Assembly: GCA_025999395.1 (NCBI GenBank)
Contig: AP024682.1
Coordinates: 301,638-365,637 of the forward strand
Reading direction: 5' to 3'
Length of the DNA: 64,000 nt
Source of the DNA: Candidatus Parcubacteria bacterium
GTDB lineage: Bacteria > Patescibacteriota > Minisyncoccia > UBA6257 > JAGOQP01
A model generated the notes under the pieces. That model was given only the letters and a program-made list of their open reading frames with translations, ran no database searches and was not told the DNA's origin. Position 1 is the first letter of the stretch. The number at the start of each line of letters is the position of its first letter. Positions 4,040 through 63,160 of the stretch are shown in pieces. Both the position numbers and the translations under genes were made by a program.

Positions 4040-5965
4040 TTAAGGCTTAATAACACACTCTCCTGTGCCAGAAGCAATTGAGCCACAAAGGCGATTAGTG
4101 GGCGAGATTATTATTCCATTATATAAAGTTCCGGTAGCATTAATACAGGTTCCAGTGGGGGTTCTATAACTTTGATAAGAACGATTAGCCATTAAAGAAC
4201 CTCCATAATCGTTATAGAAACATGAAGGTGTATCTTGATAACGATATTCTCCTGGTGGATTACAGTATTTAAGATATGTACTATAACCGCCTCTCCAGAA
4301 AGCTTTTTGATTATGATTTAAAGAAAGACAGTATAAATAGTAGTTGTTTGCGTTATTGTTTATATCTGTACAAACATCATCTCCCCACCCTTCCCAGCCA
4401 CTATTAACTGCCATTTGGAATAAACTATTAATATAAACTGAACCGGTACAATTTGTTCCTGAATAATACCATGTAGAAGAAGCTCTTCCTTGAAAAGTGC
4501 TACAATCTCCGGTTATCATATGCTTTATTTGATTAGTTGATGAGGAAAGGTAGACGGTAAAATCACAAAGATTATCTACTACTCCACTGTAAATAAGAGC
4601 TTGATTAGTTGGCATCCCATTAGAAGAATCCCTTGTTGAATAAACAGCTCGGGCTTGTTGAGAGTTTCCAGCAGCAGTAAAATCATAAAGAATTGGTCTT
4701 CCTAGATCAATTAACTGTCCCACCAAATTTAATCCATCTGACTGATAAACATTTAAAATTCCTTCACCTACTGAATTATCAACATATCCTTTTGTTGCTA
4801 CATCGCTACTGGCAGTTGGAGAGGCGACATTGGTGATTTTGTAAGTAGGAGTTGCTCCCGAAAGCTTGATGTTGCCTGCTACCTCTAGCTTTTCTCCCGG
4901 TGTTCCTGTTCCAATGCCGACATTACCCGAGGCATCAATTTTTATTCCTCTTGCTGAACTACTCCATTGGCCGATCATAAGACTACCAGTATTTGATCCT
5001 CCCGATCCATAATAAATAAGACCAATATCTCCTGCTGATGACATTGGATTATATCCACCACTACCCAATTCAGCAATTGAAAATATTCTTGCCCCCCCAT
5101 CATCTCTTAAAAGAAGACCAATTTCGTTGGCATTTGAAGTATAAATATCTAATTTTGTTCCTCCTGCTGGAGTTGCTACTCCAATCCCAACATTGCCACT
5201 AACAATTAATCCGTTGGAGGGGGCGGTGTTAACTCCAGCATAACTTCCAATGGCTACTCCGCCGGCAACATCAAGTTTGTTTAAAAGAGTAGTCACACCA
5301 ATACCAACATTTCCAGAGAAGGAAGCATTCTTCCAGCGGTTCGAGGTTCCCACAGAGTAGGTATTGTCAACTCCGGGAATTAAATCAGAATCAAAGGTGG
5401 CTGCAGAAACACGAGAAACAGCAGAGCGCAAAGAACGGCGAATAGTGCTTCCCTCCACTTTATTAGCGGCTGACATTGCTAAATCGATTTGAACAATATC
5501 TTTGCCGGGGTATTGGGTAAGTTTCTTAAATTCAAGAGAATCAATAACAACTTTATCGCTGGTAATGGATTGAGGAGTACCACTGGCTCCTTCTTTTACA
5601 TAAATTCTGCCATTTTCCAAATAAATAGTAGTGGGATCAACGGCGCTATCTTTCATTCTTAGAGTTAAAGAGGTGGTTGGTGTGCCGGGAGTTATATCTA
5701 CCAAACTTGAGTTTCTAATAAGCCTTTGAATAGTTTGCATAGCAAAATTAAGCTGTCCTGAAATTTCTACTTGAGCGCTTTGTTCGGTTTGCACTTTGGT
5801 GACGCTTAAGAAAATGCCGGTAGCAACTGAGGCAACAATTCCCAAAATTCCTACATAAATAAGCATCTCCATCAAGGAAAATCCCTGATTGTTTTTGAAA
5901 AAACAAGAAGCAGAGGTTTTTTTCATGTTTTTAAAACCTTCTTTTTTAATTACATTGGGAGACAC
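4040..5965 (-). CDS. Large type IV pilin-like protein with Gly-rich fibre-like repeats and a Cys-rich C-terminal (putative adhesin/lectin-like) domain
   Basis: Has a class III signal: MKKTSASCFFKNNQG then FSLMEMLIYVGILGIVA, with Glu at +5 (the prepilin peptidase motif). The likely true start is the Met at about 5926. Repeated GNVGIGV...KLDV units resemble tail-fibre/glycoprotein repeats. The C-terminal domain is duplicated in 3228..4031. Confidence 0.65.
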   Translation of the reverse strand: MSPNVIKKEGFKNMKKTSASCFFKNNQGFSLMEMLIYVGILGIVASVATGIFLSVTKVQTEQSAQVEISGQLNFAMQTIQRLIRNSSLVDITPGTPTTSLTLRMKDSAVDPTTIYLENGRIYVKEGASGTPQSITSDKVVIDSLEFKKLTQYPGKDIVQIDLAMSAANKVEGSTIRRSLRSAVSRVSAATFDSDLIPGVDNTYSVGTSNRWKNASFSGNVGIGVTTLLNKLDVAGGVAIGSYAGVNTAPSNGLIVSGNVGIGVATPAGGTKLDIYTSNANEIGLLLRDDGGARIFSIAELGSGGYNPMSSAGDIGLIYYGSGGSNTGSLMIGQWSSSARGIKIDASGNVGIGTGTPGEKLEVAGNIKLSGATPTYKITNVASPTASSDVATKGYVDNSVGEGILNVYQSDGLNLVGQLIDLGRPILYDFTAAGNSQQARAVYSTRDSSNGMPTNQALIYSGVVDNLCDFTVYLSSSTNQIKHMITGDCSTFQGRASSTWYYSGTNCTGSVYINSLFQMAVNSGWEGWGDDVCTDINNNANNYYLYCLSLNHNQKAFWRGGYSTYLKYCNPPGEYRYQDTPSCFYNDYGGSLMANRSYQSYRTPTGTCINATGTLYNGIIISPTNRLCGSIASGTGECVIKP

Positions 5966-6039
5966 AACTTTTCTTTATTAATTTTACCAGCTTTAAAAAT
6001 AAAAACAAAGCAAGGTGTGGATAAACAAGAGAGAAGGAA

Positions 6040-6723
6040 TCAGAAGGATTTTAAAAGAATTACCTTGCCAATTATTTCTTTTTTGTCTATTAATCCAAAG
6101 CGAGTGGAATCCAGAGAACCTTCAATTTTATTTCCTAAAATTAAGTAGGTATTTTCTGGAATCACTGGATAATCTCTCAGATAAAGCTTTAAGATGGCTG
6201 ATCTTTCTTTAGGAATAAAATAAGGGATTTGTTGAGCGTTAGTTAAAATTTGATCGTTAACAAGGATTTGATAACCATCCTCTTCTTCTTTTAGTTGCCA
6301 TTTATCGTTGGGAAGAGCTTTTACAATTTTAATTAACCTTTGACCGTTAGGGTGCTGGTAAATAATTATATCGTTTCTTTGGACTGGGTGACATTGGTAA
6401 TAATTTTCAAGAACTTTTATTTTTTCTCCGCTTTCTACAATTCCTGACATTGAATCTCCTATTACTTCTTCTAAAAGAGTTTTAATTTGGCAATCTTTTT
6501 CTAAGGGGGCCTGATTTTTCTCTTCTGAATTGAAATTTTCTTTGGCGACTGAGGCAGATTTATTTTCGACTAATTTATCGGAGTTATCTTGGAAAGAAAT
6601 TTTATTGTCAGAAAAGGCGTCATCTTTTTGGCTAACTTTTAGAGAGAGGAAAAATAAGCCAAATAAGGCAATTAAAATCAAGGTCAAACTTCCTACTAAA
6701 ATCAGAATTGTCTTCAATTTCAT
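6040..6723 (-). CDS. lepB: Signal peptidase I
   Basis: Has an N-terminal TM segment. Shows the S26 boxes: GDSM (Ser box), IKIVKALPNDK (Lys box) and GNKIEGSLDSTRFG (E box, GDNxxxSxDSR-like). Confidence 0.8.
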   Translation of the reverse strand: MKLKTILILVGSLTLILIALFGLFFLSLKVSQKDDAFSDNKISFQDNSDKLVENKSASVAKENFNSEEKNQAPLEKDCQIKTLLEEVIGDSMSGIVESGEKIKVLENYYQCHPVQRNDIIIYQHPNGQRLIKIVKALPNDKWQLKEEEDGYQILVNDQILTNAQQIPYFIPKERSAILKLYLRDYPVIPENTYLILGNKIEGSLDSTRFGLIDKKEIIGKVILLKSF

Positions 6724-6803
6724 ATTTATTTTATAAGCTTGCGATAAGCGATTATTGTCATTATACTCTGAAAAAGAAGAGAGAGGTAGTTTTTATTTAT
6801 CTT

Positions 6804-8681
6804 ATGGATATTCGAAATTTTTGTATTATTGCTCATATCGATCACGGTAAGTCCACTTTAGCTGATCGCTTGTTAGAAATCACAAACACAGTTGATAAAA
6901 GACAGATGAAGTCTCAGTATTTAGATCAGTTGGAGCTAGAAAGAGAAAGAGGGATTACTATAAAGATGGCTCCCGTAAGAATGAAATATTTTTTTCGGGG
7001 GCAGGAGTATTGTTTAAATTTGATAGATACCCCTGGTCATCCTGATTTTGGATATGAGGTTTCTCGGGCTTTAGCGGCAGTAGAAGGAGCAATCCTTTTG
7101 GTTGATGCTACTCAAGGAATTCAAGCACAGACTCTTTCTAACTTTTATGCAGCTCAAAAAGCAGGCTTAAAAATTATTGGAGCGGTAAATAAGATTGATT
7201 TGGGAAGTTTTGATGTAGAAAAAGCGGTCAAAGAAACCGCTTCTCTTTTAGGAGTAGATGAAAGCGAAATTTCAAGAATTTCAGCTAAAACAGGAGCGGG
7301 AGTAAAGGAATTATTGGAAAGATTAATCGAAGAAGTTCCTCCCCCCCAGATTCAAAATCATCAGCAAATTTCTCGAGCTTTAATTTTCGATTCCTTTTAT
7401 GATAATCATAAAGGGATTGTTGCTACGGTAAGAGTTTTTGAGGGAAGTTTTAAAGCTAATCAGGAAGTTTTTTTGATCGCCGCTAAGGAAAAATTTAAGA
7501 TCAAGGAGGTGGGTTATTTTACTCCTCATCTTTCAGCTACCGACTCTTTGTCGGAGGGAGAAATTGGTTATTTAGTAACTGGTATAAGAGATCCTCATCA
7601 AGTAAAAATTGGAGATACCGTTATTTCGCTGAAAGCGAAATTGCAGACAAATAAAATTGGTGTTAGTGCTAATCAACATTTTGATTCACATCAGGCTGCA
7701 CTCTGGGCCCTGCCAGGTTATCGAGAACCCAAGCCAGTAGTTTTTGTTTCTTTTTATCCTGATAATCCTGACGAATACGAAAACTTAAAGAAGTCTTTGG
7801 AACGCCTTAAACTAAATGATTCTTCTTTTACTTTTGAACCGGACGCTAACGAAGTTTTGGGAAGGGGATTTAAAGGAGGATTTTTGGGGAAGCTTCATTT
7901 TGAAATTGTTCTCCAACGTTTGGAAAGAGAATTTGGAGTGAAAACAGTTACTTCTTTTCCTTCAGTGGCTTATAAAGTTAAATTACCCCCAGCTTCTTTA
8001 AAAAAGGATAATCTATCTAGGTTAGAAAAAGATGAAGAAGGTTTTTTGATTATTCGCAATCCCAAAGACTTGCCCGATAACTTTTTAGAGATTTGGGAGC
8101 CGATGATTAGGGTAGAAATTATTGCTCCTCATCATTTATTAGGAAGTCTTCTTCAATTAAAAGAAGCTTTTCGTTGGCAAGAAGTAAATACTAAGTTGAT
8201 AGGAGAAAAGGTTATTATCGAAACAAAAATGCCTTTGGCAGAATTAATTTCTGACTTCGATGATAGGTTAAAGTCGGTTTCGGGTGGGTTTGCTTCTTTT
8301 AGTTATCAAGAAGAAGGTTACCAAAAATCAGATCTGGCGAAATTAGAGATTCTGGTGGCTGGTGAAGTGGTCCCCGGGCTTTCTCGAATTTTACCTAAAG
8401 AAACTCTGGAAAAAGAAGCGCGAAAAATGGTTTTGCGTCTTAAAGAAATACTTCCTCGTCAGCAATTTAGCCAAGCTCTTCAAGCAAAAGCACAAGGAAG
8501 AATTATTGCTCGAGAAACTATCCCCGCTTTAAAAAAAGATGTGACTGGTTATCTTTACGGAGGTGATCGAACTCGGAAGATGAAGCTTTGGAAAAAACAA
8601 AAGGAAGGGAAAAAGAAGCTTTTGTCTTTGGCGCGGGTAAGAATTTCTCCTCAAGACTTTAAAAAGATTTTGTCTAAATAG
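6804..8681 (+). CDS. lepA: Translation elongation factor 4 (LepA)
   Basis: Starts NFCIIAHIDHGKSTLADRLL (G1 motif) and continues with DTPGHPDF. About 625 aa. The annotated ORF starts at 6708, but the conserved start is the Met at 6804. Sits in the classic lepA/lepB neighbourhood. Confidence 0.9.
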   Translation: MDIRNFCIIAHIDHGKSTLADRLLEITNTVDKRQMKSQYLDQLELERERGITIKMAPVRMKYFFRGQEYCLNLIDTPGHPDFGYEVSRALAAVEGAILLVDATQGIQAQTLSNFYAAQKAGLKIIGAVNKIDLGSFDVEKAVKETASLLGVDESEISRISAKTGAGVKELLERLIEEVPPPQIQNHQQISRALIFDSFYDNHKGIVATVRVFEGSFKANQEVFLIAAKEKFKIKEVGYFTPHLSATDSLSEGEIGYLVTGIRDPHQVKIGDTVISLKAKLQTNKIGVSANQHFDSHQAALWALPGYREPKPVVFVSFYPDNPDEYENLKKSLERLKLNDSSFTFEPDANEVLGRGFKGGFLGKLHFEIVLQRLEREFGVKTVTSFPSVAYKVKLPPASLKKDNLSRLEKDEEGFLIIRNPKDLPDNFLEIWEPMIRVEIIAPHHLLGSLLQLKEAFRWQEVNTKLIGEKVIIETKMPLAELISDFDDRLKSVSGGFASFSYQEEGYQKSDLAKLEILVAGEVVPGLSRILPKETLEKEARKMVLRLKEILPRQQFSQALQAKAQGRIIARETIPALKKDVTGYLYGGDRTRKMKLWKKQKEGKKKLLSLARVRISPQDFKKILSK

Positions 8682-51986: not shown

Positions 51987-52087
51987 CTTTTTGATTTTTT
52001 TTTACAATAGAGAGCGGCTGTTTTGGAGAGTTCTCATGGTGGTCTAGCCCCGAAGGGGACCCTTCGGGTTGCGCGTTATTGTGAAGA

Positions 52088-52361
52088 ATGAGGTATTTTC
52101 GTTTATTTTCTTAAAAGTGAAAGTACTGGAAGATTTTACATAGGATGTACGCGGGATATTGATAAAAGATTGAGATATCATAATAGTGGTAAAAATAAAT
52201 CAACCAAACCATACAGGCCTTGGAAGTTAATCTACTTTGAGAGTTATGATAGTATAAAAGATGCTTATAGGAGAGAGTGGTATTTAAAACATTCTAAGGG
52301 GTATTTAGAAAAAAAGGTTTATAATAAAAAAATATGGAGGAGGGTTCGCATAGTGGTCTAG
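52088..52361 (+). CDS. GIY-YIG nuclease family protein (YhbQ-like), interrupted by a +1 frameshift in a T-run
   Basis: ATG at 52088 reads MRYF, then shifts at tattttcg. The continuation reads VYFLKSESTGRFYIGCTRDIDKRLRYHNSGK...RPWKLIYFESY, the classic GIY...YIG...R...N pattern. The 3' end runs into the tRNA-Ser 5' end. Confidence 0.55.
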
Positions 52362-52428
52362 TGCGCGGCTCTGGAGAAGCCGTAGGTCCGAAAGGGCCTC
52401 GTGGGTTCGAATCCCACCCCCTCCGCCA
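52336..52428 (+). tRNA. tRNA-Ser (anticodon GGA), class II with a long variable arm
   Basis: Anticodon stem CGGCT/AGCCG with loop CTGGAGA. Variable arm TAGGTCCGAAAGGGCCTCG. T-arm GTGGG-TTCGAAT-CCCAC. 3' GCCA is encoded. There is one A-C mismatch in the acceptor stem as drawn, so the exact 5' end is uncertain. Confidence 0.7.
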
Positions 52429-52441
52429 GTTGGAAAAAGAA

Positions 52442-52540
52442 GGTTGCTGGCTCGCCCTCTGCGAGGGCTCGCCAGCCGATTTTAGGCGCAAAATTGAATT
52501 TTTTGTCTTTCAAAATAAAGTTCGAGCCGACATTTTTTAG
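52442..52540 (+). repeat. Island-flanking direct repeat, copy 1 (att-like)
   Basis: About 75% identical to 63051-63160 in the same orientation (shared ttgctggct, ctctgcgaggg, and aattttttgtcttt...ttcga.c.gacattttt). An inverted partial copy lies at 53887-53957. Confidence 0.6.
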
Positions 52541-53834
52541 AAATTCCCGGATTTGATAATTGTCGCCCTGCGACAATAGAATTTTGGCTTGTTTCTGCCT
52601 CAAAAATCATTTCTTTCATCGGTTCGAGCCAATTATTTCCCGATTGTTCAAAATCTCTGATTTTCTGCTCAATATCCAGTTTTTCGTTGAGCAGTTTTTG
52701 TTTCTTGGCTTGGTATTCTCCAAGTGTCAAAGCTCCTGCCGGCGATATAGAGGTCTAACAGTTTTTCAATTTTCTGCTCAACTCTCTGCCTTTTGCTCGC
52801 TGGAGATTTTGAACAATAATTTCGCTTTCTCTTTTCAGCTTGCTCTTTTTCTTTGTCTAACTCCAAAATCATATTTTCCGCCCACTCATCAGGCAAAGAA
52901 ACCTTTTTGAATAAAATCTCTTCATCTGCTCAACAAGGTTTTCTTCCCTTAAATACCTTTCATCGCATTTTTGCTTTTTCTTGGTGCACCGGTAGTAGTT
53001 ATGCCCTTTTTGCTTTTCAGCGGTTATCATACAGCCGCAATTTCCGCAACGCATAAAGCCGGAAAAAGCAAATTCATGCTTTCTTTTTCTCTTTTTCTTG
53101 CCTCGGTTATTCATTACTTGCTGGACAGAATCAAAAAGTTTCTTGGAAATAATTGGCTCGTGAGCTTCCCTGATAAACTTCTCCGTTAAACTTAAAAACT
53201 CCGTAGTAGAAATGATTTTTGAGCATTCGCTGGACACAGGAAACAGAGAGCGGTTTGTTGCGGTAGCTTGTTATTCCGCTGTCCGCCAAAAACTGCTTTA
53301 TGGCTTTTAGGGTATAGTCGCCGGTGGCGTAAAGCTCAAACGCTTTTCTGATAAACGGTGCTTTGCCTTTGTCCAAATCTATTTCTTTTGTCATGGTGAT
53401 TATTAAGATAGCCAAGCGGAGCAAAGCCTGGCCAAATTCCTTTTCGCAGTTTTTAGCGGTGTCCTCGCTTGATGTTTTCTGAAAGGTTGTCAACATAATA
53501 CTTGCTTTGCCCAAAAGCGATGGAGAGCATAAATTTTCCCTGCGGCGTGTTTTCAAACCTGAAAGTCGGAAATTTCAAATCTAAAATTTTTCCTGTGTCC
53601 AGCAGATAAATGATTTTCCCGCCGTCAACAGAATTTCTTGCTAACCTGTCCGGGTGCCAAGCCAAAATTCCGCTGGCTTCGCCGAGCGCAAATCCGGTCT
53701 AACATTTCTCCGAAAACTTTTCGGCCAGGTTCCTTGGCGGCAAATTCTTTTAGCTCAGCAAGCTGAGCTTCAATAGACAAAACCTGCTTTTCTTCTGAAT
53801 CTGTTGATTTTCTGCAATAGATAAAGTATTTCAT
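52482..53834 (-). pseudogene. Large serine recombinase, decayed copy (multiple frameshifts)
   Basis: Five overlapping minus-strand ORF fragments align in order to the intact recombinase at 55945..57537. Matching segments include MKYFIYCRKSTDSEEKQ, AWHPDRLARNSVDGG...FGQSKYY..NLSENIKRGHR, HEPII.KKLFD.VQ and MRCGNCGC...GHNYYRCTK. Confidence 0.8.
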
Positions 53835-53858: not shown

Positions 53859-54152
53859 GAAAAGCCCGCTTCTGGCGTCCCGCTTTGCGGAACAAAGACA
53901 AAAAATTCAATTTTGCGCCTAAAATCGGCTGGCGAGCCCTCGCAGAGGGCGAGCCAGCAACCTCTTTTTCTGACTGGCGATGTGTATTGGAAAAAATCCG
54001 AACTGATTTTATTAACGGGCTCGGCTGGCGGAAGGCAAAGACCGACCCCACTTTCCGCCCGCCTCGCCCTGAACCGGAAGCGAAAAGGCAAACCGCCAAA
54101 GAACCTGAAAAAATGTCGGCTCGAACTTTATTTTAGTCAGAAGCGGGCTTTT
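53859..54152. mobile_element. MITE-like non-coding element (~294 bp) with 16-bp terminal inverted repeats
   Basis: TIRs gaaaagcccgcttctg (53859-74) and cagaagcgggcttttc (54137-52). The interior shares blocks with the repeats at 52442-52540 (inverted) and 55900-56040. Confidence 0.5.
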
Positions 54153-54231: not shown

Positions 54232-54429
54232 ATGGCAACAATAGGCGAAAATATCAAAAAATACCGCAACAAACTTGGCTTAACGCAGGACGATTTGGTG
54301 AGAAAGTCTGGTGTAAAACACACTACCCTTACCAAAATAGAGGGCGATTTTGTTAAAAAACCGAGCGTTCAAATTATGGCCAAAATTGCCAAAGCATTAG
54401 GCGTTTCGGTTGAGGATTTATTGAAATAA
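54232..54429 (+). CDS. XRE-family helix-turn-helix transcriptional regulator
   Basis: 65 aa. IKKYRNKLGLTQDDLVRKSGVKHTTLTKIE is a Cro/CI-type HTH. Confidence 0.8.
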   Translation: MATIGENIKKYRNKLGLTQDDLVRKSGVKHTTLTKIEGDFVKKPSVQIMAKIAKALGVSVEDLLK

Positions 54430-54430
54430 T

Positions 54431-54793
54431 ATGGAACTGATTTTTCATGAAATTTTTAGAGCACTTGGCTACCTGTTAATCGCAGGTGTTGTGTTGTTTG
54501 CTTGGAAGACAGCACGCGACAACTCAAAAGACGGAAAACTTAAAGAAGTTTTATGGAAAGGACTTTTGTGGTGTGCTGGGATTGCTTTATTCGCGAGCTT
54601 CACTTTAGGAAATCCCTCTTGTATAGAACAATCTGATCCAGTATATGGCGGTTGCGAACAATATGCTGATGATGGTTTTGAGCCAACCACCGAACAAAGA
54701 GTCGCAAATTTTGCTTACTTCATGACGCTGTTATATATTCCTGTCGTTTTTGGTGCTTTCAGTGGTAATAAATTAACAACGAACAAAGAATAA
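54431..54793 (+). CDS. Hypothetical membrane protein (island cargo)
   Basis: 120 aa, three predicted TM helices and Cys residues. The start is 2 nt after the HTH gene stop. Confidence 0.35.
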   Translation: MELIFHEIFRALGYLLIAGVVLFAWKTARDNSKDGKLKEVLWKGLLWCAGIALFASFTLGNPSCIEQSDPVYGGCEQYADDGFEPTTEQRVANFAYFMTLLYIPVVFGAFSGNKLTTNKE

Positions 54794-54794
54794 T

Positions 54795-55505
54795 ATGGAA
54801 ATATTTCGTTTTATATTTTCAATTATTTTCGCCCCAATCAGATGGTTGGCAAATTTATTTACTCAACGAAAGGACAACATTTTAGAGTGGCATTTTAATT
54901 ATGGCCCCTCGTTTATAAAAATTGAAACAAAATACAAAGAGCAATTTTTACCCGATGACTTATTGATCGCTGGTTATATCCTATTTTTAGCCCGATATTT
55001 TTTCATCTGCGATGATAGACAAATAGAGGTTGTTAGAAAGTTTCTTTTAAACGAAATCGAAAAATCAAAATCTAATGAGATTACACTAAAGTTGTATGAG
55101 GCCGTTTTTCAAACCTTAAATCAAATGGAAAAAGATGCAACGCTTGGCTTATTCAAAATCTATAATAGATTTTTACCAATGCCACCCCTAACTTTTTCAG
55201 AAGATGAAGAACCGCGTCATTCGTTGGCAAAATATAGTTTCTTAGTTTTTGAGCGTTCCGGCGGCAATGGCTTTGGTCATATCTTCTATATGTCTGCCGG
55301 ACCCGATATTATTTTGCTTCCGCTTACGGTCGGAATTCTATACGAATATGTAGTGAACAAATTGCGAAACAAGGATAAAAAAGAAAAACTAGATAATTCA
55401 ATCATTGATTTATTAAAAGGCCATTCAGCAGTAGATTGTCGCTCTATAGCAGGTCAAACAGAATTGCCAAATGAGGTTATTATTAAAAATAATTTAAACT
55501 ACTAA
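54795..55505 (+). CDS. Hypothetical protein (island cargo)
   Basis: 236 aa with no recognisable motif. Sits in a tightly packed operon. Confidence 0.35.
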   Translation: MEIFRFIFSIIFAPIRWLANLFTQRKDNILEWHFNYGPSFIKIETKYKEQFLPDDLLIAGYILFLARYFFICDDRQIEVVRKFLLNEIEKSKSNEITLKLYEAVFQTLNQMEKDATLGLFKIYNRFLPMPPLTFSEDEEPRHSLAKYSFLVFERSGGNGFGHIFYMSAGPDIILLPLTVGILYEYVVNKLRNKDKKEKLDNSIIDLLKGHSAVDCRSIAGQTELPNEVIIKNNLNY

Positions 55506-55506
55506 T

Positions 55507-55854
55507 ATGGGAATTGTAATTTTTATTATCGGTTTAGTTTTCGGGCTTTTCGCATTTAGCCAAATTATTTATCCGCTTTTCTCGGCTTGGCCTAGAGCGA
55601 AAAAATTAGAGCGCGAAGGAAAATTGAAAAGACCAATTCCGATTTCTACATTTCTAATTGCACCAATTATTTGGGGCGTCCTTATGTGGGCTTCTGTTTT
55701 GGTCATCGGAAAATTTTGGCCTGAAAACTTAAACACTTATTACATAAGTTTGGTGATAATTTTGTTTGTGGTAATTATTCAGATTCCAAAGCAAAACCGA
55801 GATTTAGAAGCGGATTTCAAAGATTCTTGGAAACAGTATTTGAAAGAAGAATAA
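55507..55854 (+). CDS. Hypothetical membrane protein (island cargo)
   Basis: 115 aa with three TM helices. The start is 2 nt after the upstream stop. Confidence 0.35.
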   Translation: MGIVIFIIGLVFGLFAFSQIIYPLFSAWPRAKKLEREGKLKRPIPISTFLIAPIIWGVLMWASVLVIGKFWPENLNTYYISLVIILFVVIIQIPKQNRDLEADFKDSWKQYLKEE

Positions 55855-55944: not shown

Positions 55945-57537
55945 TCAGGGCGAGGCGGGCGGAAGGGGGGTTCGGGGGGAATTCCGCCCGCCGAGCCAAT
56001 CGGTCGCGAAATCGGTTCGGATTTTTTCAAATGCACACCGCCAATATTCAATTTCAGAGTTTTTGAAGGTTCTTGCCTCGCCCTCGCTTCGCTCGGGCTC
56101 GGCAAAAGCAACGATTTTATACGGATTTTTGAAATCAAAAAACAATTTCTGCCCGCTCAAAAGAAAGTTCGAACCAATCTTTTTTAGAAAATCCCGGCTT
56201 TGCTCAGGATTTTCTTGCAAAGTGACAATTTCGGCTTGTTTTACGGAGTTTATGAATTTGGCGGCGAGTTCGAACCGATTATTGCCTTTTTGCTCAAAAG
56301 CCTTCAGTTTGTCTTTCAAAAGTTGTTTTTGATTGACGAGTTTGTTTTTGGCCTCTCTGTATTCATCCAAAGACAAAGCGTTTTCAAGATAAGCGTTCAT
56401 CAGCTTGTCTAACTTTTCGTCAATTGCTTTTATTTCGTTTTCTATCTTTTGAGCAAAAAAGCACGATGATTGGGCTTTTTGTTCTTTTTCTTTTTCAAGT
56501 TCTTTTATCATCCAATCAGCCCAATCATCGGGCAAAGAAACTTTTTGAATCTCCTTTTTGATTTGCTCGGCGATTATTTCTTCGCGAACATATCTTTGAG
56601 AACAAGGGATTTTCCTTTTGGTGCAACGCAAATAATTGTGTCCTTTCTGTGTCTCGGTGGTGATAAAGCAACCGCATTTTCCGCAACGGAACATTCCTCT
56701 GTAAATGTATGGCTTTAATTCTCTTGTCTTTGGTTTGCTTTTTTGTCTCATCACTTCCTGAACTTGGTCAAAAAGTTTCTTTGCGATAATCGGTTCGTGC
56801 TTTCCTTCGTAATATTCGCCGTTGTATCTCATCACTCCGTAGTAAAAAGGATTTTGAAGAAGGTATTGATAATTTGAAACAGAAAGTAATTTACCTTTTC
56901 TTCCTCTCAATCCCAGATTGTTGACAATCTTTCGGATCTCTTTAAGAGCGTATTTGCCGGTGGCGTAAAGCTTAAAGGCTTTTTTGATAAGAGGAGCTTT
57001 TTCTTTGTCTATATAGATTTGTTTTGTCTTGGGGTCGTTGAAGTAGCCAAGAGGCGCCATTTGAGGCCATAGACCTTGTTTTAGTTTTTGGCGATGTCCC
57101 CGCTTTATATTTTCCGAAAGATTGTCAATATAGTATTTTGACTGCCCAAAAGCGATAGACAACATAAACTTTCCTTGAGGCGTGTTTTCAAACCAAAAAG
57201 TCGGGAATTTTAGCTCTTTGATTACTCCGGTATCAACAAGGTAAATTATTTGTCCGCCGTCAACAGAATTACGAGCGAGACGGTCAGGATGCCAAGCCAA
57301 AATCCCTTCTGCTTCGCCCGCTTCAATTCTCTTTAGCATTTCTGCAAAAACAGGTCTTCCCGGCTTCTTGGCAGTTTGTTTTTCAACGAGAACATCAACG
57401 ATTTCCAGATTTTCTTTTTTCGCTAATTCTTTGAGTTCCGCTATTTGGTCCTGAATACTCCTTACTTGCCGATCTTCTGAATCGGTTGATTTTCGGGCGT
57501 AGATGAAAAATTTTCTTGTTTTGTTGTCTTTTTTCAT
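55945..57537 (-). CDS. Large serine recombinase (resolvase domain, recombinase domain, zinc ribbon and coiled coil)
   Basis: The probable start is MKKDNKTRKFFIYARKSTDSEDRQ, with the catalytic Ser in the YARKST motif. Has WHPDRLARN and the zinc ribbon CGKCGC...GHNYLRCTKRKIPC. The ORF track extends the N-terminus to 57609 and the C-terminus into the flanking repeat. The true C-terminus probably lies before about 56190. Confidence 0.8.
   Translation of the reverse strand: MKKDNKTRKFFIYARKSTDSEDRQVRSIQDQIAELKELAKKENLEIVDVLVEKQTAKKPGRPVFAEMLKRIEAGEAEGILAWHPDRLARNSVDGGQIIYLVDTGVIKELKFPTFWFENTPQGKFMLSIAFGQSKYYIDNLSENIKRGHRQKLKQGLWPQMAPLGYFNDPKTKQIYIDKEKAPLIKKAFKLYATGKYALKEIRKIVNNLGLRGRKGKLLSVSNYQYLLQNPFYYGVMRYNGEYYEGKHEPIIAKKLFDQVQEVMRQKSKPKTRELKPYIYRGMFRCGKCGCFITTETQKGHNYLRCTKRKIPCSQRYVREEIIAEQIKKEIQKVSLPDDWADWMIKELEKEKEQKAQSSCFFAQKIENEIKAIDEKLDKLMNAYLENALSLDEYREAKNKLVNQKQLLKDKLKAFEQKGNNRFELAAKFINSVKQAEIVTLQENPEQSRDFLKKIGSNFLLSGQKLFFDFKNPYKIVAFAEPERSEGEARTFKNSEIEYWRCAFEKIRTDFATDWLGGRNSPRTPLPPASP
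56032..56190. repeat. Imperfect terminal inverted repeat, left, of the recombinase element
   Basis: Matches the reverse complement of 57596-57808 over about 125 bp (caccgccaatattcaatttcagagtttttgaaggttcttgcctcgccctcgcttcgctcgggctcggca...). Both inner ends read accaatcttttttag. Confidence 0.6.
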
Positions 57538-57595
57538 AATCGCTTTTGGACAGTTAGTCCCGCTTCGCGGGACAAATTGCCGCTTTGCGTTCCGC

Positions 57596-57808
57596 CAAAG
57601 GCGGAACAAAAAAGATTGGTTAACCCCGCCCTTTTAACAGGAAGGGCGGGGTGTTCGCCTTCGGCGAACCGAACCTCCAAATTCTGGAGCAAAAATTGTT
57701 TTTTGATTTCAAAAATCCCTATAAAATCGTGGTTTCTGCCGAGCCCGAGCGAAGCGAGGGCGAGGCAAGAACCTTCAAAAACTCTGAAATTGAATATTGG
57801 CGGTGTCT
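57596..57808. repeat. Imperfect terminal inverted repeat, right, of the recombinase element
   Basis: See the partner at 56032-56190. It carries an extra insertion of about 50 bp with two GC-rich hairpins. Confidence 0.6.
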
Positions 57809-58090
57809 TTTGGACAAAATTCGAACCTATTTTGAACAAAATCCTGATGCCGACTTCTGATTGTCGCCCTGCGGGCGACAATCCCGCCCCGCGTTTCCGC
57901 ACGGCGTCCGCTTCGTTTCCGCCGAACAAAACAGAAAAATTTTCTAAACATTTATTTAATCGCGCCCCCGACAAAATTTTTTCTATTAAGGAAAAGAAAA
58001 TTTTTCTGTTTTGACATTCTACTAACGCAGAATTGCGGAAACGCTTCCCACCCCCAGTCCCGCTTCGCGGGACAGCAGGCGGGCTATGGT
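57799..58090. repeat. Perfect 292-bp inverted repeat, left copy, flanking the RM/HEPN cassette
   Basis: The reverse complement is identical to 62758-63049 as read by eye over the full length. It contains the hairpins gattgtcgccctgcgggcgacaatc and gtcccgcttcgcgggac. Confidence 0.85.
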
Positions 58091-58161
58091 ATTTTTTATA
58101 TTCGCCCTTGCCCCACCCGTACCGTGCGCGGGCGGTAGAGTAAAACTCCCTAAAAATAATC

Positions 58162-58212: not shown

Positions 58213-58434
58213 ATGCCAAAGTCAATTTATACAAAAGAGTATAAGAAGATCCTCGCACGGCTTAAAAAAGCCAGGCAGGATGCTGGCTTAAAACAGACAG
58301 AGGTCGCCAAAAAGTTAAATAGGCCTCAGTCTTATATTTCAAAAATAGAAAGAGGAGAAAGAAGAATTGATGTAGCAGAACTAAAAGAGTTAGCAAAGAT
58401 TTATAAAAAAGACATAAATTATTTTATTGAATAA
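58213..58434 (+). CDS. Controller (C) protein-like XRE HTH regulator of the RM system
   Basis: 73 aa with HTH LKQTEVAKKLNRPQSYISKIERGERR. Lies 17 nt upstream of the putative endonuclease gene, the classic C-R arrangement. Confidence 0.7.
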   Translation: MPKSIYTKEYKKILARLKKARQDAGLKQTEVAKKLNRPQSYISKIERGERRIDVAELKELAKIYKKDINYFIE

Positions 58435-58451
58435 AAATTAAATCACACAAT

Positions 58452-59426
58452 ATGGGTAAGTATGAAAGAGAACAAATCGAAGAGGCTGAGAAAATAATTG
58501 TTAAGATTATTAATTCTCAGAAGGTGTCCGATTTAGATAAACAAAATCGGTGGTTTAAACATGCGATCGCTATTGCTGAAAGAATTAAAAAGGATTTTCC
58601 CAATATTAAAAAAGCACAACATTTAGGTAATCGTTATGATAATACGGGAGATATATTATTAATTACCTCTGATAAAAGAGAAATTTTTATTGAAGTTAAA
58701 ATGAGCGACACAAGATTAGGTGTGGGGACTAAAGCAAATGTCAGTCAAGATGCGCTTACAGAAAATTATCTTTTTGTGGGCAAAGTTAAAAGTTGGAGTA
58801 AATTTCGCAAGGAGAAAAAACATAATGAGTGGGTTGATAGTTATTTAGACCTTTTTACTAGATATCCAAAAAAGATTTTAAATATCTCAAATTCCATAAT
58901 TAGAAGAGAGGAGAAAGCAAGGTATTTAAGAGGTTTAAAACAAAAAGGAAGTAGAAAAGCCAAAGAAATTCTCGATAAAATTCACGAGAGAGATAAAAAA
59001 GAAAAAATAGAATATTTGGTTTATCTTAGCAAACAACCGCAAAGAGAAGAAATGATTAAAAGATTTTTTATTTTAATTACATTAGGTATCCATAAAAAAG
59101 AAGAATTACAGGCTCTAATAAAAAAAGATAATTTTTTTCAAGAAATTCAAGATCTTTTGGTGTATTATGGGAATTCTTACAATGATAAAATTATTGTAAG
59201 GCAAGAAAACGCAGGTGAGAAAATTAAAAAAGTTCTCGAAGAGTTTTCAGGTTTTAAAATTATCTTTCCTTCCGGAACTACCCACTGTAAATTAGTAGGA
59301 ATAAAGGGAAAGAAAAATATACCTTTATTACAAATAGTTTTACATTGGAAAAATATTGCTCAAGGAATTAAAACTCCGTGCCTTAATATTTTTGATCTAA
59401 CTCCAAAATTTATTAATCCTTATTAA
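58452..59426 (+). CDS. Putative type II restriction endonuclease (PD-(D/E)xK)
   Basis: GDILLITSDKREIFIEVK gives a D...E-x-K catalytic core. It is convergent with the MTase gene, overlapping it by 4 bp. Confidence 0.5.
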   Translation: MGKYEREQIEEAEKIIVKIINSQKVSDLDKQNRWFKHAIAIAERIKKDFPNIKKAQHLGNRYDNTGDILLITSDKREIFIEVKMSDTRLGVGTKANVSQDALTENYLFVGKVKSWSKFRKEKKHNEWVDSYLDLFTRYPKKILNISNSIIRREEKARYLRGLKQKGSRKAKEILDKIHERDKKEKIEYLVYLSKQPQREEMIKRFFILITLGIHKKEELQALIKKDNFFQEIQDLLVYYGNSYNDKIIVRQENAGEKIKKVLEEFSGFKIIFPSGTTHCKLVGIKGKKNIPLLQIVLHWKNIAQGIKTPCLNIFDLTPKFINPY

Positions 59427-61066
59427 TTTGGGTCAATTGGGAATAATTTCTCTAGCTCAGTTTTAGAGATCTGCGTATTTCCTGTAATACTTCTTACCAC
59501 TTTCAATTTCTCTTCCGAGGAAAGCTGTTTAGCAATATCCTTAAGAGTTAAGTTTGTTTTTGGTAAATTTTTTCCGAAATCCATCTTAAGTTGTTCCTGT
59601 TTAGAGGGAGGAAAAATAACATTGACATGGTTTTCAGCAATAAACTTCATTCCCGAAGGGATAACAGCTGCTTTTAGTGTCGCTGTTTTCACTGAACCTG
59701 TGATTCTATTTACAACAATAGCAGGGCCAATATCAAAATCTTTTCTTTTTACATATTGAGGTTTTGTTTTATCTATAATTGGAAATTTTAGTCCTGTTGG
59801 AGTTATATTATGGGCCCATATTAAAGGGATTCCTTCTTCCGGGTTGTTTGTCAATAAATGCTTATTTTGGTTCCAGACTAATCTGCCAGTTTTTACCTCA
59901 TATCCGAGATCATATAGTGTTAATTTATTTTCGAAGGCTTTTTCTAGAAATTTTGGATTTTCGCTAAATATTAAAATTCCATTTTTTTTGAATAAATAGT
60001 TTCCCTTGTTTCTACCTTTTTTAAGGATAATTAGCATTGTTGATTGTAGCGCCCCGTGGAATATTTTAGGGTCATCTAGAATATGTAAATATTCAATATT
60101 GGAATTCTCTACAATAAATTTTCTTAGTTTTAAAAAGTATGCTCCGTTATTCATAGAAGGGGGAACAACATAAGCTAAATATCCTCCTTCTTTTAACCAT
60201 TTTAATCCCTGACAAATGAACAGGCTAAATATGTTTAATCTACCGTTTATAATACTCCCGAATTTTTTTCTTATATTTTCTGGAGGAGTAAATTCAAAAT
60301 AAGGCGGATTACCAATTACAAAGTCATATTTACCATAATCTTCGTTTAAAAGAGCATCTAGCTGTTTGAGTTTTGCTTCAGGAACTACTTCTTTAGCGAT
60401 CTTTACTAGTTTTTTGTCTATATCCCATCCATAAAGTTGAGGGTTTTTGAAATATTTTTTTGCTGTGATTAAAAATTCTCCTGTTCCACAAGCAGGATCT
60501 AGTATTTTTGGGTTTTTAATGTTGGTTGGTAATTTACTAAGGAGTGCTTCTCTTATTGATCTTGGGGTAAAATATTGCCCTAAAGATTTTCTATATTCTA
60601 TATCTGTTTCTTCCATATACCTAATTGTAGCCTCGGTGAATTCCTCTTTTTCTTTTATTTTTTCTTTTAACTCGCCAAAACTTCTAATTACACTTATTAC
60701 TTTTCCTTGAATTATTAATTCTTTTGTAAAAATCGGTTTTATTTTTGGATTTGCTGGTTGAAGCCGGAAACCATTTTTTTCTCTATAAATCTTTTTGAGT
60801 GTAACTTCATTATCATTTATTAGAGCCACTACCGTTTCTCCATTTTCAGCAATTGGTTGTTTCCTAATTATTACGATATCTCCATCGTAAATTCCTTCGT
60901 CAATCATGCTATCTCCTTGAACCCTTAAAGCGTAATGTTCGCCTGATTTAGATAATTGTGATTTGGGAACCTCAATCATTTCAGGATCTTCTATTGCTTC
61001 AATTGGTTGACCAGCAGCAATAGTGCCAAGTAGTGGAATTTCTACTGTCTCTTTCTTTTCTCCCAC
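59423..61066 (-). CDS. Fusion protein: LexA-like S24 autopeptidase domain plus N6-adenine DNA methyltransferase (gamma-class, TaqI/Eco57I-like)
   Basis: The N-terminal 130 aa read IPLLGTIAAGQP (the Ala-Gly cleavage site), GDSM (Ser nucleophile) and VTLKK (Lys). The C-terminal MTase has QYFTPRSI, ILDPACGTGEFL (motif I) and GNPPYF (motif IV). Confidence 0.8.
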   Translation of the reverse strand: MGEKKETVEIPLLGTIAAGQPIEAIEDPEMIEVPKSQLSKSGEHYALRVQGDSMIDEGIYDGDIVIIRKQPIAENGETVVALINDNEVTLKKIYREKNGFRLQPANPKIKPIFTKELIIQGKVISVIRSFGELKEKIKEKEEFTEATIRYMEETDIEYRKSLGQYFTPRSIREALLSKLPTNIKNPKILDPACGTGEFLITAKKYFKNPQLYGWDIDKKLVKIAKEVVPEAKLKQLDALLNEDYGKYDFVIGNPPYFEFTPPENIRKKFGSIINGRLNIFSLFICQGLKWLKEGGYLAYVVPPSMNNGAYFLKLRKFIVENSNIEYLHILDDPKIFHGALQSTMLIILKKGRNKGNYLFKKNGILIFSENPKFLEKAFENKLTLYDLGYEVKTGRLVWNQNKHLLTNNPEEGIPLIWAHNITPTGLKFPIIDKTKPQYVKRKDFDIGPAIVVNRITGSVKTATLKAAVIPSGMKFIAENHVNVIFPPSKQEQLKMDFGKNLPKTNLTLKDIAKQLSSEEKLKVVRSITGNTQISKTELEKLFPIDPN

Positions 61067-61070
61067 TATT

Positions 61071-61265
61071 TCAATAGACCTGGGTTCGTTTTTTTTCTCT
61101 TTTGATATATCCTTCTTTTTCGAGTCTTAAGAGATGATGATGAATAGTGGATACTGAAGAAAGTCGAAAATGTTTTTTAATTTCTTCTATAGAGGGAGCG
61201 TAACCTCTTTTTTCTTTGAAGGACTTTATAAAATCTAAGACTTGTTTTTGCCGTTTTGTAATCAT
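61071..61265 (-). CDS. LexA-type winged-helix DNA-binding domain, upstream segment of the same LexA-MTase gene, separated by an A8-run frameshift
   Basis: ITKRQKQVLDFIKSFKEKRGYAPSIEEIKKHFRLSSVSTIHHHLLRLEKEGYIKR is the canonical LexA N-domain. Removing one A from the A8 run at about 61085-61092 fuses it in frame with IEIVGEKKETVEIPLLG. Confidence 0.75.
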   Translation of the reverse strand: MITKRQKQVLDFIKSFKEKRGYAPSIEEIKKHFRLSSVSTIHHHLLRLEKEGYIKREKKRTQVY

Positions 61266-61269
61266 AGTA

Positions 61270-61330
61270 TTGACTTTCTATTTATTTTCGATTATACTTT
61301 AAATATAAACAAGACATCTAAAAAAGTCAA
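61270..61330. promoter_or_regulatory. Divergent promoters with a near-palindromic candidate operator
   Basis: Plus strand: TTGACT, 17 nt, TATACT, leading toward the 61357 gene. Minus strand: TTGACT (61330-25), 17 nt, TATATT, leading toward the LexA-MTase gene. A 15-bp near-palindrome TATAcTTTAAAtATA overlaps both -10 elements. Confidence 0.4.
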
Positions 61331-61356
61331 TCAGTCTAATTAATTTATACCCAACC

Positions 61357-61656
61357 ATGGCTACATCAAAACACGATGAAATTGCAAAAAAACTTGCCAA
61401 AAAATTCGGCACAGAATATAAATCTAATGAGGGCATAGATATTGTACTGCCTGATCGCGTTATAGAAGTTGAGACTAAAAAAGACGGAATACGCCAAGGT
61501 ATAAATCAAGTGATAAGATCGTCTAAAGCCAGATATATAGCTGTTAACAAAAAGAATGTACAAAATGCTCTTGACGCCACACAAGGCACCGGAATTGGAG
61601 TAATGAGTGAAACGGGCCATATTATAAAACGCGCCAGCAGAAGCAGGAAGAAGTAA
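61357..61656 (+). CDS. Small PD-(D/E)xK-like (YraN/UPF0102-like) putative endonuclease
   Basis: 99 aa. GIDIVLPDRVIEVETKK fits D-x(n)-E-V-E-x-K. Confidence 0.35.
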   Translation: MATSKHDEIAKKLAKKFGTEYKSNEGIDIVLPDRVIEVETKKDGIRQGINQVIRSSKARYIAVNKKNVQNALDATQGTGIGVMSETGHIIKRASRSRKK

Positions 61657-61681
61657 AAATAAAAGATTTCTAGAAAGTTAT

Positions 61682-62356
61682 ATGGAGGAGATACTTACAA
61701 AAATTAAACAACTAATAGAAGGATTTAGGGATAAATATACAATCAGATTAGAAGAAATTGTTGTTAATGCTGATAAGTTAAAGAAAGCCTGCAGAAGAAT
61801 TGAGCGCTCTTGGAGCGGTTCGTTTGCTGGTTGGCATGGCCGTATGTACTTTCGTGATTTTCAGATTCCATCAATACATGAAAGATTTAGTGGAGAATGG
61901 GGAGGAATACATGGCATACCTGAAGGATGGGAAGAAAAACAGCCTGAAGAAGTACGAGAAAAAATTGAAGAATTAGTTGGTGATGAATTTTCAGCTGATG
62001 ATTTTGAAAAAGAATTAGGGAAGTTAAAAAAAGAGGCAATCCAGCTTAAAGACGAAATAGTAATAACTCTTTCGGTCTTTAATTTTGACACCCACGCTGA
62101 AAAAGAAAAAGAATTATTTTCTCAAATAGAAAATTTTGAATTTGGCAAAACAAAGGGTGAATTTATAAACGATGGGTTGCCAAAAACAATGATGTCAAGA
62201 GATACGGAAGCCTTGCGGCAAGGAATTTGTATCGCTTCGTGGTTGTATTATGAAGGAGTAGCACTTGAAGCTAAGAGTTTTTATGAGGCGATAAATAATT
62301 TTTTCGGATTGGTTAATAAATTAGTAAGGCTACTTGAACAAAAAATCAAAACTTAA
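61682..62356 (+). CDS. Hypothetical protein, likely partner of the downstream HEPN protein
   Basis: 224 aa with no recognisable motif. It overlaps the next ORF by 23 nt, which suggests translational coupling. Confidence 0.35.
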   Translation: MEEILTKIKQLIEGFRDKYTIRLEEIVVNADKLKKACRRIERSWSGSFAGWHGRMYFRDFQIPSIHERFSGEWGGIHGIPEGWEEKQPEEVREKIEELVGDEFSADDFEKELGKLKKEAIQLKDEIVITLSVFNFDTHAEKEKELFSQIENFEFGKTKGEFINDGLPKTMMSRDTEALRQGICIASWLYYEGVALEAKSFYEAINNFFGLVNKLVRLLEQKIKT

Positions 62357-62753
62357 TACTAAAACAATCCATACCATAGATAATCAGTTAAATAATTTGC
62401 ACCAAGAAATATATAATAAATGTTTTGACTTGTATCAAAAGGGGGCATACGCGGAGGCAGTTGAAAAGAGTTTTAAGGTTGTACGAGATAGATTAAGAAA
62501 ATTGACAGGGTATGAGACAGGTTCAGAGGCATTTGGTAAGGGAAAATTACATATTAAGGGTGCTGCTGCTCAAAATGTTGACCAAGATTTTAATGACGCG
62601 GTTAAGTTCTTAACCATGGCAATTGATCGATTCCGCAATGAAAAAAGCCATACCTCAGATGCTAAAATAGATGACCCTGTCCGTGCTTATGAATATTTAA
62701 GACTAAGTAGTCTTGCGATGAATTTACTTGAAGATAGTGAGATTTTGTCGTAG
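62334..62753 (+). CDS. HEPN-like domain protein (TIGR02391-like), putative RNase toxin/abortive-infection component
   Basis: 139 aa. Has RNEKSH (the R-x4-H HEPN motif) near the C-terminus within a predicted helical bundle. Confidence 0.5.
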   Translation: MNKKSKLNTKTIHTIDNQLNNLHQEIYNKCFDLYQKGAYAEAVEKSFKVVRDRLRKLTGYETGSEAFGKGKLHIKGAAAQNVDQDFNDAVKFLTMAIDRFRNEKSHTSDAKIDDPVRAYEYLRLSSLAMNLLEDSEILS

Positions 62754-62757
62754 GCTT

Positions 62758-63049
62758 TACCATAGCCCGCCTGCTGTCCCGCGAAGCGGGACTGGGGGTG
62801 GGAAGCGTTTCCGCAATTCTGCGTTAGTAGAATGTCAAAACAGAAAAATTTTCTTTTCCTTAATAGAAAAAATTTTGTCGGGGGCGCGATTAAATAAATG
62901 TTTAGAAAATTTTTCTGTTTTGTTCGGCGGAAACGAAGCGGACGCCGTGCGGAAACGCGGGGCGGGATTGTCGCCCGCAGGGCGACAATCAGAAGTCGGC
63001 ATCAGGATTTTGTTCAAAATAGGTTCGAATTTTGTCCAAAAGACACCGC
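62758..63049. repeat. Perfect 292-bp inverted repeat, right copy
   Basis: Reverse complement of 57799-58090. Confidence 0.85.
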
Positions 63050-63050
63050 T

Positions 63051-63160
63051 AGTTGCTGGCTTACTCTCTGCGAGGGCGCAAAGAGCGCTCCAGCCAACTT
63101 TGAAGCAGAAATTTAATTTTTTGTCTTTTAAAGTGAAATTCGAACTGACATTTTTAAAAG
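63051..63160 (+). repeat. Island-flanking direct repeat, copy 3 (att-like, diverged)
   Basis: About 75% identical to 52442-52540. It is preceded by aggttcgaat, which resembles a tRNA T-loop remnant. Confidence 0.5.

Follow-up and report, generated by a model that had tools for sequence, protein, structure and literature searches.

The large serine recombinase (LSR) gene on the minus strand at 55945-57537 of the window, a 64,000-nt stretch of contig AP024682.1 from a Candidatus Parcubacteria metagenome-assembled genome (MAG), is enclosed by inverted repeats. These are very probably attachment (att) sites, not the ends of an insertion sequence (IS): the gene would belong to a tRNA-targeting serine-integrase element that carries its element-side site (attP) inside the recombinase open reading frame (ORF), together with a spare, inverted attP beside the gene, and that is present in the window as two stacked copies. 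An earlier note on this DNA, made from the sequence alone, had drawn attention to the repeats and proposed either an IS-like unit using a serine recombinase or an invertible gene segment.

Near-identical sequence does lie in inverted orientation on both sides of the gene, as the note had said: the arms at 56009-56152 and 57689-57832 are 92% complementary over 144 nt, and are matched in a blastn self-comparison of the window at E = 1e-54. Equally, the LSR ORF and a small plus-strand ORF (57651-57860) read across the repeat into near-identical peptides, while the ‘identical inner ends’ described in the note correspond to an extra exact 14-nt inverted pair (56172-56185 / 57608-57621). The 144-nt repeat is composite, with five mismatches in the 118 nt leading up to a 7-nt core, GCGGTGT (57800-57806 / 56035-56041), and seven mismatches in the 26 nt beyond it; the resemblance in these outer 26 nt is that of a shared att motif only, borne by two different tails. 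The same core starts an exact 292-nt inverted repeat (57800-58091 / 62758-63049) that encloses 4.7 kb of cargo. A decayed LSR copy to the left, belonging to what is here called the type II element (the intact gene being type I), has inverted arms of its own (52435-52510 / 53894-53969; 76 nt, 97%), as well as a second, non-colinear inverted pair (52512-52538 / 54108-54134; 27 nt, 100%). All repeat pieces in the window switch partner at TGGCG(G/A), the reverse complement of the tRNA 3′ end ...CCGCCA.

The repeats travel with the gene, which was the check that the note had proposed. Relatives were assembled as 160 loci, comprising 80 of at least 499 from a collection with one genome per species (nearly all Patescibacteria MAGs) and 80 of at least 555 from metagenomes, and each locus was compared with itself, the LSR 3′ coding region against the inverted sequence just upstream of the LSR start. 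Besides the decayed copy in the window, an inverted arm in the same place and orientation was present in 80/94 testable loci, which stem from independent assemblies (40/49 in the first set), with a median identity of 99% and a median length of 99 nt (range 40-189 nt). The repeats are therefore neither confined to this gene and its decayed copy nor placed without relation to gene boundaries. Arm-bearing loci include a complete genome (CP174360.1, locus L036) and a 634-kb contig (L010).

A tRNA gene, as called by ARAGORN, abuts the LSR 3′ end in 92/127 loci (Ser 34, Asn 25, Gln 22, Leu 6, five others), in antisense orientation without exception, and the LSR ORFs nearly always run into peptides resembling ...WRRGRDSNPR..., the tRNA T-arm read antisense. 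Three junctions can be distinguished. The first, J1, joins the arm at the LSR 3′ end (arm A) to the antisense tRNA; the second, J2, joins arm A to a native tail, forming a complete inverted attP, with native C-terminal codons, just upstream of the LSR start; the third, T, joins host flank to tail at the far end of the cargo. Alignment of all three in 21 loci showed that they share a core of only 4-8 nt (mostly TGGCGG), and that the switch of partner falls exactly at the arm boundary. The tail at J2 is conserved, of the form W-x5-(K/Q)-I-R-T-x-F... followed by a stop, and recurs in inverted orientation, at 92-100% identity, 0.7-5 kb further out; this far copy, at T, was found in 34 of the 61 loci whose upstream sequence extends for 3 kb or more. 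The element is delimited by T and J1, which are in direct orientation, and measures 2.5-9.3 kb (median 4.2 kb).

When the element half of J1 is joined to that of T, the product is arm A followed by tail, the native 3′ end of the LSR gene, which places attP within the recombinase ORF; the crossover core falls at the W-R-C / K-I-R-T codons, 17-45 codons before the native stop. On the evidence of these junctions, integration swaps the last 17-45 LSR codons for antisense tRNA sequence, and the bacterial site, attB, corresponds to the tRNA gene's 3′ end. The window shows the same three-way pattern, with core GCGGTGT. In the 21 loci, the anatomy of J1 and T is that of hybrid junctions from conservative attP x attB recombination at a short shared core, and it is from this anatomy alone that we infer integration and excision of the element.

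The geometry of the half-sites lends confidence to this assignment. On the tRNA side, the motif CGAAY (in the T-loop) lies 14 nt from the core (range 12-16), and on the tail side, where it encodes I-R-T, it lies 19 nt away (range 17-21). The offset between the two was exactly +5 bp in 35/36 loci, the sole exception being a regex artefact, and both elements in the window fit it. An offset of 5 bp in the zinc-ribbon-domain (ZD) motif between attP- and attB-type half-sites has been described for LI integrase (PMC3783163), so that the tail can be read as an attP-type half-site and the tRNA as an attB-type half-site. The premise of the earlier note, that LSRs act on attP and attB, was thus correct, the arms being att sites with just this half-site geometry. 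Furthermore, Arg in the tail motif is encoded by CGA in 42/43 cases, compared with a background of 18% in LSR bodies, indicating that the constraint acts on DNA. A recognisable motif was present on the P′/B′ side only; the host-side half of attB carried no conserved motif, and several T junctions (L015, L050, L074 and that in the window) have an older element's arm on the host side. Recognition seems to be dominated by the tRNA half of attB.

A second T-loop-like DNA motif, GGC-TCG-AAC, lies inside the LSR ORF 81-126 nt upstream of the crossover, where it encodes IGSN and is referred to here as the B box. Its Ser codon is TCG in 68/68 genes (background 16%) and its Asn codon AAC in 67/68. Many type II-like elements have, past the tail in J2, a 27-33 nt copy of the box (B′), the identity boundaries of which lie 14 nt from CGAAC, the attB-type spacing. 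The B box may be an accessory or secondary recombinase site. In the spare site of the intact window element the B-box copy is interrupted: G+C-rich hairpins (57622-57688, ~67 nt), which the left arm lacks, separate the 14-nt piece from the main right arm, and ~45 nt of this stretch is a net insertion.

The intact type I LSR has 530 aa from its ATG and is identical to BCX16104.1 (Candidatus Parcubacteria MAG KatS3mg098). It contains the Pfam domains PF00239 Resolvase (4e-21, residues 11-156), PF07508 Recombinase (1.9e-17, 179-265) and PF13408 Zn_ribbon_recom (5.8e-08, 279-331), and it weakly matches the SPbeta and A118 integrase structures. Scores were under all curated NCBIfam cutoffs (for example, CcrB at 116.6 bits against a cutoff of 900, and XisF at 94.8 bits against 375), and the curated subfamilies CcrB, XisF, CcrA and CcrC were rejected on these grounds. 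Judged by its domains, the product is an LSR, or serine integrase, of an uncharacterised family. Its last 30 codons (AFEKIRTDF...ASP and stop) derive from the tail of the type II element, that is, from the other subtype. In its cluster at ≥90% identity, the proteins terminate in antisense-tRNA read-throughs (form ...WRRGWDSNPR...) that differ among members. A database look-up for contigs encoding the window LSR found none on record.

The att-related features of the window, from left to right, are as follows.

52339 to 52428, plus strand: tRNA-Ser(GGA) gene (ARAGORN), whose 3′ end ...CCGCCA and T-arm form the B′ half-site, with CGAAC 14 nt from the core.
52435 to 53831, minus strand: decayed type II LSR pseudogene, the newest element, abutting the tRNA gene (tblastn pieces in several frames).
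52435 to 52545: J1 junction of the type II element, with arm A at 52435-52510 and B box at 52512-52538.
53894 to 54134, plus strand: J2 of the type II element, a spare inverted attP, with arm A at 53894-53969, core TGGCGA at 53975-53980 and, in its tail, CGAAC at 53999-54003 and B′ box at 54108-54134; an ORF over it (53885-54136) encodes ...DWRCVLEKIRTDF....
54232 to 55854, plus strand: type II cargo, an XRE-type helix-turn-helix (HTH) gene (54232-54429) and three small ORFs without Pfam match.
55945 to 56034, minus strand: type II tail (Y) at the far junction T of that element, with 89-91% inverted matches to the tail of its J2.
56035 to 56190, minus strand: left arm, the P half of the type I att site within the LSR ORF, with core ACACCGC at 56035-56041, arm A extending to 56152 and B box near 56160-56185 (GGTTCGAAC, codons IGSN).
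57608 to 57860, plus strand: right arm, J2 of the type I element and a complete spare attP, with the left part of the B box at 57608-57621, the hairpin stretch at 57622-57688, arm A at 57689-57799, core GCGGTGT at 57800-57806, native tail LLDKIRTYFEQNPDADF ending in a stop, and CGAAC at 57822-57826.
57800 to 58091, plus strand: Y arm of the type I J2, one copy of the exact 292-nt repeat.
62758 to 63049, minus strand: far junction T of the type I element, the second Y copy, 100% identical, ending at core ACACCGC (63043-63049).
63050 to 63155, minus strand: remnant (arm A and B box) of an older type II-like element, with 85-88% matches to 52443-52537.
56160-56185 (minus strand), 52512-52538, 54108-54134 and 63109-63155: occurrences of the B box (IGSN motif), sequence GGCTCGAAC.

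As read from these junctions, the window holds two elements in tandem by tRNA-Ser(GGA), the newer, decayed type II and then the intact type I, followed by the remnant of a third; the remnant forms the ‘host’ side of the type I T junction, and a host gene, from 63218, comes next. The simplest history is one of successive insertions beside the tRNA gene, each newcomer displacing the earlier ones further from it: an old type II-like element, now reduced to 63050-63155, would have come first, then type I, and last type II. The left arm of the intact gene is, in this arrangement, the P half of the type I LSR joined at the core (56035-56041) to the type II tail; the tail of the type I J2, LLDKIRTYFEQNPDADF, agrees in type with the tails native to close relatives. 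Locus L015 has the same arrangement, with an older LSR reading into the tail of a newer element. Formation of the left arm through an attP x attP-like event was considered and set aside, stacking being simpler and fitting all junctions.

Two further observations were made on this part of the window. Upstream of tRNA-Ser, at ~52015-52075, there is a tRNA-like fragment without an ARAGORN call, followed by a short ORF-like stretch, and contigs from two other samples end within this region (52015-52330). G+C-rich perfect hairpins, in an A+T-rich genome, occur at 57556-57574, 58056-58074, 62775-62793, 57622-57688 and 57862-57880; the hairpin sequence AGTCCCGCTTCGCGGGACA is present in three copies.

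Several results weigh against the identification of a tRNA-targeting integrative element with a constant spare site. A free circular form was sought among the loci, and no contig with direct terminal overlap was found; one locus (L090) is at most compatible with a ~4.3-kb circle broken inside the repeat. An empty attB was sought by way of the neighbouring host protein, and none was recovered, both contigs ending before the tRNA gene. The arm is missing from 14/94 testable relatives, six of which read into a tRNA and are preceded by 1.5 kb or more of available sequence, so that the spare copy is not needed for residence at a tRNA; a motif search for single-attP variants in these six loci returned only J1 itself. 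Within the window, moreover, the A arms are 96% identical (5 mismatches/118 nt) and the Y arms 100% identical over 292 nt, a gap for which simple, equal neutral divergence is not a sufficient explanation and which points to gene conversion or recombination having recently taken place across the cargo Y arms (57800-58091 / 62758-63049).

The role of the spare attP can be addressed only tentatively. The free form would be a circle with two inverted attP regions, integrating normally through the copy in the gene. Our best guess, a hesitant one, is that the spare attP lets the recombinase segment occasionally invert, most plausibly by homologous recombination across the 75-190 nt of near-identical arms, and such a flip would give the LSR gene back its native tail and set it immediately downstream of the tRNA gene. 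It is possible, with much the same reserve, that the enzyme is a self-gating integrase: integration would clip its own 3′ end, and rare inversion would rebuild the gene by the tRNA promoter, thereby gating excision and movement. Were this so, a self-gating family would be reading the universal T-loop as its attB motif, which would account for its occurrence at no fewer than nine tRNA species. Two loci, L016 and L164, do have the flipped arrangement, in which a sense tRNA-Asn precedes the arm and the arm in turn precedes the LSR gene. Both halves of the spare attP are ~99% identical to their partners over 200-420 nt in total, far beyond the need of a 50-bp binding site.

The same comparison also yields evidence that counts against flipping. 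As many as 106 loci are unflipped, compared with ~10 that carry a native tail, and only two of those ~10 have the tRNA gene upstream; several native-tail loci may be stacked elements as in the window. These orientation counts (2 flipped vs 106 unflipped) are taken across different genomes. The predicted flipped-state proteins of the window element (two versions, each of 518 aa) were not on record in an exact look-up among 15 billion proteins, and published rules for LSRs exclude the pairing of attP with attL.

The main alternative, which we regard as possible but doubtful, is that the spare attP is a regulatory region, serving either as an operator for self-repression of the LSR gene or as the source of a transcript that pairs with the 3′ coding end of the mRNA. 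Both here and in relatives, the spare attP does lie between an HTH gene and the LSR gene, which are divergently oriented, and in many loci its inner end stops 17-40 nt short of the LSR start codon or even runs over it (for example in L036 and L080), which means that LSR transcription must start in J2 or pass through it. An operator, however, needs ~50 bp, rather than 200-420 nt at 98-100% identity with a complete tail ORF and stop, and a scan for promoters and terminators around J2 in the window performed no better than on shuffled sequence, leaving the promoter evidence uninformative. The small HTH gene beside J2, which recurs in relatives, is by its position a candidate directionality factor.

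A dedicated inversion switch of the Hin/Gin kind, in which the LSR flips its own gene to toggle the C-terminal tail or promoter context and the adjacent tRNA is incidental, is distinctly improbable. The second proposal of the earlier note, an invertible segment as such, is possible, two relatives (L016 and L164) being in the flipped arrangement. In favour of a dedicated switch, near-identical inverted arms enclose the gene family-wide and continue into two alternative in-frame tails, and both orientations relative to the tRNA gene exist, L016 and L164 differing in this from the rest. A switch is difficult to reconcile, however, with the skew in orientation and the missing flipped protein described above, or with the ≥90% cluster, whose members reaching the C-terminus are all unflipped and at different tRNAs. 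Furthermore, the third junction, T, lies in direct orientation to J1 and bounds the cargo, which is integration anatomy; the sites have asymmetric attP/attB geometry instead of being identical and inverted; and LSRs are not known to pair attP with attL. By analogy with the yeast 2-micron plasmid, the spare attP could conceivably also be a requirement of the proposed free circle.

An IS-like transposon, the other proposal of the note, in which a serine transposase would use the arms as terminal inverted repeats and mobilise the recombinase gene alone, is very hard to sustain. The arms do closely flank the gene, and three short contigs (L001, L017 and L043) consist of exactly the gene with inverted k-mer ends, but such contigs are to be expected from any assembler at an inverted repeat longer than k. 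The outer arm boundaries are recombination cores joined to tRNA or tail, that tail appears again at a third site far off, the target is not duplicated, and the targets are the tRNA 3′ ends already described. An insertion sequence with terminal inverted repeats was accordingly rejected: the ends of the element are T and J1, in direct orientation and sharing only the 4-8 nt core, and J2 is internal.

It is just as improbable that the structure arose through mis-assembly, or is a remnant without function that nested or tandem insertion left in this MAG only: the window does come from a metagenome-assembled genome, one relative (L089) is clearly a palindromic mis-assembly, and tandem stacking is seen both here and in L015, but the same architecture occurs in 125 loci from many independent projects and assemblers, the window arms are 96% and not fully identical, which argues against a collapsed or duplicated assembly path, and the J2 halves match J1 and T at ~99% within each element while differing between elements. 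A single-stranded hairpin attP in the style of CTX phage was rejected, since serine recombinases need concerted double-strand cleavage and the order of products is that expected for a double-stranded circle.

The repeats also have consequences for assembly. L001, L017 and L043 correspond to exactly the segment between the arms, with inverted ends of k-mer length, and contigs that stop exactly at the arms indicate that the repeat breaks assemblies. Many relatives sit at the very end of a contig, or the contig that bears them stops at the arms, and the elements are likely to be a systematic cause of contig fragmentation in MAG assemblies of the candidate phyla radiation (CPR). L089 (Ga0209508_1004595) has exact inverted ends of 2,056 nt (1-2056 and 5256-7311), each with a copy of the LSR gene; this is most likely a palindromic mis-assembly, the assembler having walked back through a long inverted repeat, and serves as a warning for annotation. 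The same type of element occurs in bins labelled Gammaproteobacteria, Omnitrophota, Marinimicrobia or Actinomycetota (L012, L014, L028, L055, L059, L076 and others), which could be mis-binned CPR contigs or reflect a truly wider host range. A search of viral contigs for the family gave only four weak or partial matches, and this near-absence indicates that the family is not phage-associated.

Type I cargo occupies 58213 to 62753, on mixed strands, and includes, besides two unknown ORFs, the following.

58213-58434, plus strand: HTH_3 protein.
58452-59426, plus strand: 324-aa protein of unknown function.
59423-61066, minus strand: LexA-S24 / type II N6-adenine methyltransferase.
61071-61265, minus strand: ORF of 64 aa with a LexA N-terminal domain.
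62334-62753, plus strand: Hypoth_Ymh protein.

In this cargo the S24 peptidase domain is fused to the methyltransferase, and the LexA N-terminal DNA-binding domain is a separate ORF just upstream; a continuous 621-aa LexA-methyltransferase version is found in L034. What the window carries looks like such a LexA-methyltransferase fusion, possibly in divided form.

An LSR that has attP within its own ORF, along with a constant inverted spare attP, was not found described in the full-text literature searched, which left most subscription journals outside its coverage. With >1,000 matches in two collections, as a lower bound, this is a common mobile element of CPR/Patescibacteria, in whose genomes few mobile elements have been defined so far. 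The 5-bp offset, together with the near-universal tRNA T-loop motif, provides predicted att sites for hundreds of natural LSRs, which matters for efforts to find integrases whose targets are predictable or broad.

Among known systems, the enclosure of a recombinase gene by inverted sites recalls the DNA invertases. The Hin gene lies between inverted sites, and Gin and Cin have alternative C-terminal coding ends at the borders of the invertible segment; these are small serine recombinases that act on identical 26-34 bp sites with an enhancer and Fis, and both orientations are common. The recombinase of the window family, by contrast, is large, its sites are asymmetric and of att type, and one orientation dominates ~10 to 1. 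A Hin/Gin-type invertase was rejected, the window protein having 530 aa with LSR domains and its sites differing in their outer halves (tRNA or another tail vs native tail). There is also some likeness to the yeast 2-micron plasmid, in which FLP, a tyrosine recombinase, recombines identical sites (FRT inverted repeats), in that the free circle proposed here, a predicted and not an observed form, would be small and split by two inverted repeats with a recombinase site. In contrast to the 2-micron plasmid, no replication function or copy-number role is evident in the window element.

Site-specific insertion at tRNA 3′ ends is shared with the phiRSM-type phages, tycheposons and Islander islands. 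The phiRSM filamentous phages reportedly target tRNA-Ser, and their enzyme is a small, resolvase-like recombinase of an inovirus. A minority of tycheposons carry an LSR, and tRNA islands, according to the Islander account, overwhelmingly use tyrosine integrases and have long direct repeats of the tRNA 3′ end. In the literature searched, none of these systems is described as having its attP within the recombinase ORF, or as carrying an inverted spare attP.

The ‘suicidal’ integrases of the SSV type (SSV1, pTN3, pT26-2) offer a parallel in logic, sharing both an att site in their own gene and a tRNA-gene target that separates part of that gene (PMC8371274). In the window family, too, the recombination site lies in the integrase gene, and integrated copies have the displaced tail at T and J2. 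SSV-type integrases are, however, tyrosine recombinases and exclusive to archaea according to a 2021 review (PMC8371274); their gene is split in two substantial parts, whereas in this bacterial serine recombinase only the last 17-45 codons are displaced and, in a further difference, a spare copy of the displaced end is kept beside the gene. An SSV-type integrase proper was rejected, the enzyme being a serine recombinase in Patescibacteria MAGs and not an archaeal tyrosine recombinase. The family would thus extend to bacterial serine recombinases a logic hitherto described as restricted to archaeal tyrosine enzymes.

The enzyme resembles the large serine integrases of phages and integrative and conjugative elements (A118/LI, phiC31, Bxb1, SPbeta SprA, TnpX, CcrAB), which have the same set of Resolvase, Recombinase and zinc ribbon domains and, likewise, a short crossover core with a motif shifted by 5 bp, as in LI integrase. 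The window family departs from them in having its attP inside the integrase ORF and a constant second, inverted attP, in targeting the tRNA 3′ end and T-loop rather than a protein-coding gene, and in forming tiny elements (median 4.2 kb) that are essentially absent from viral contigs. On the features compared here, enzyme and sites alike belong to the serine integrase superfamily.

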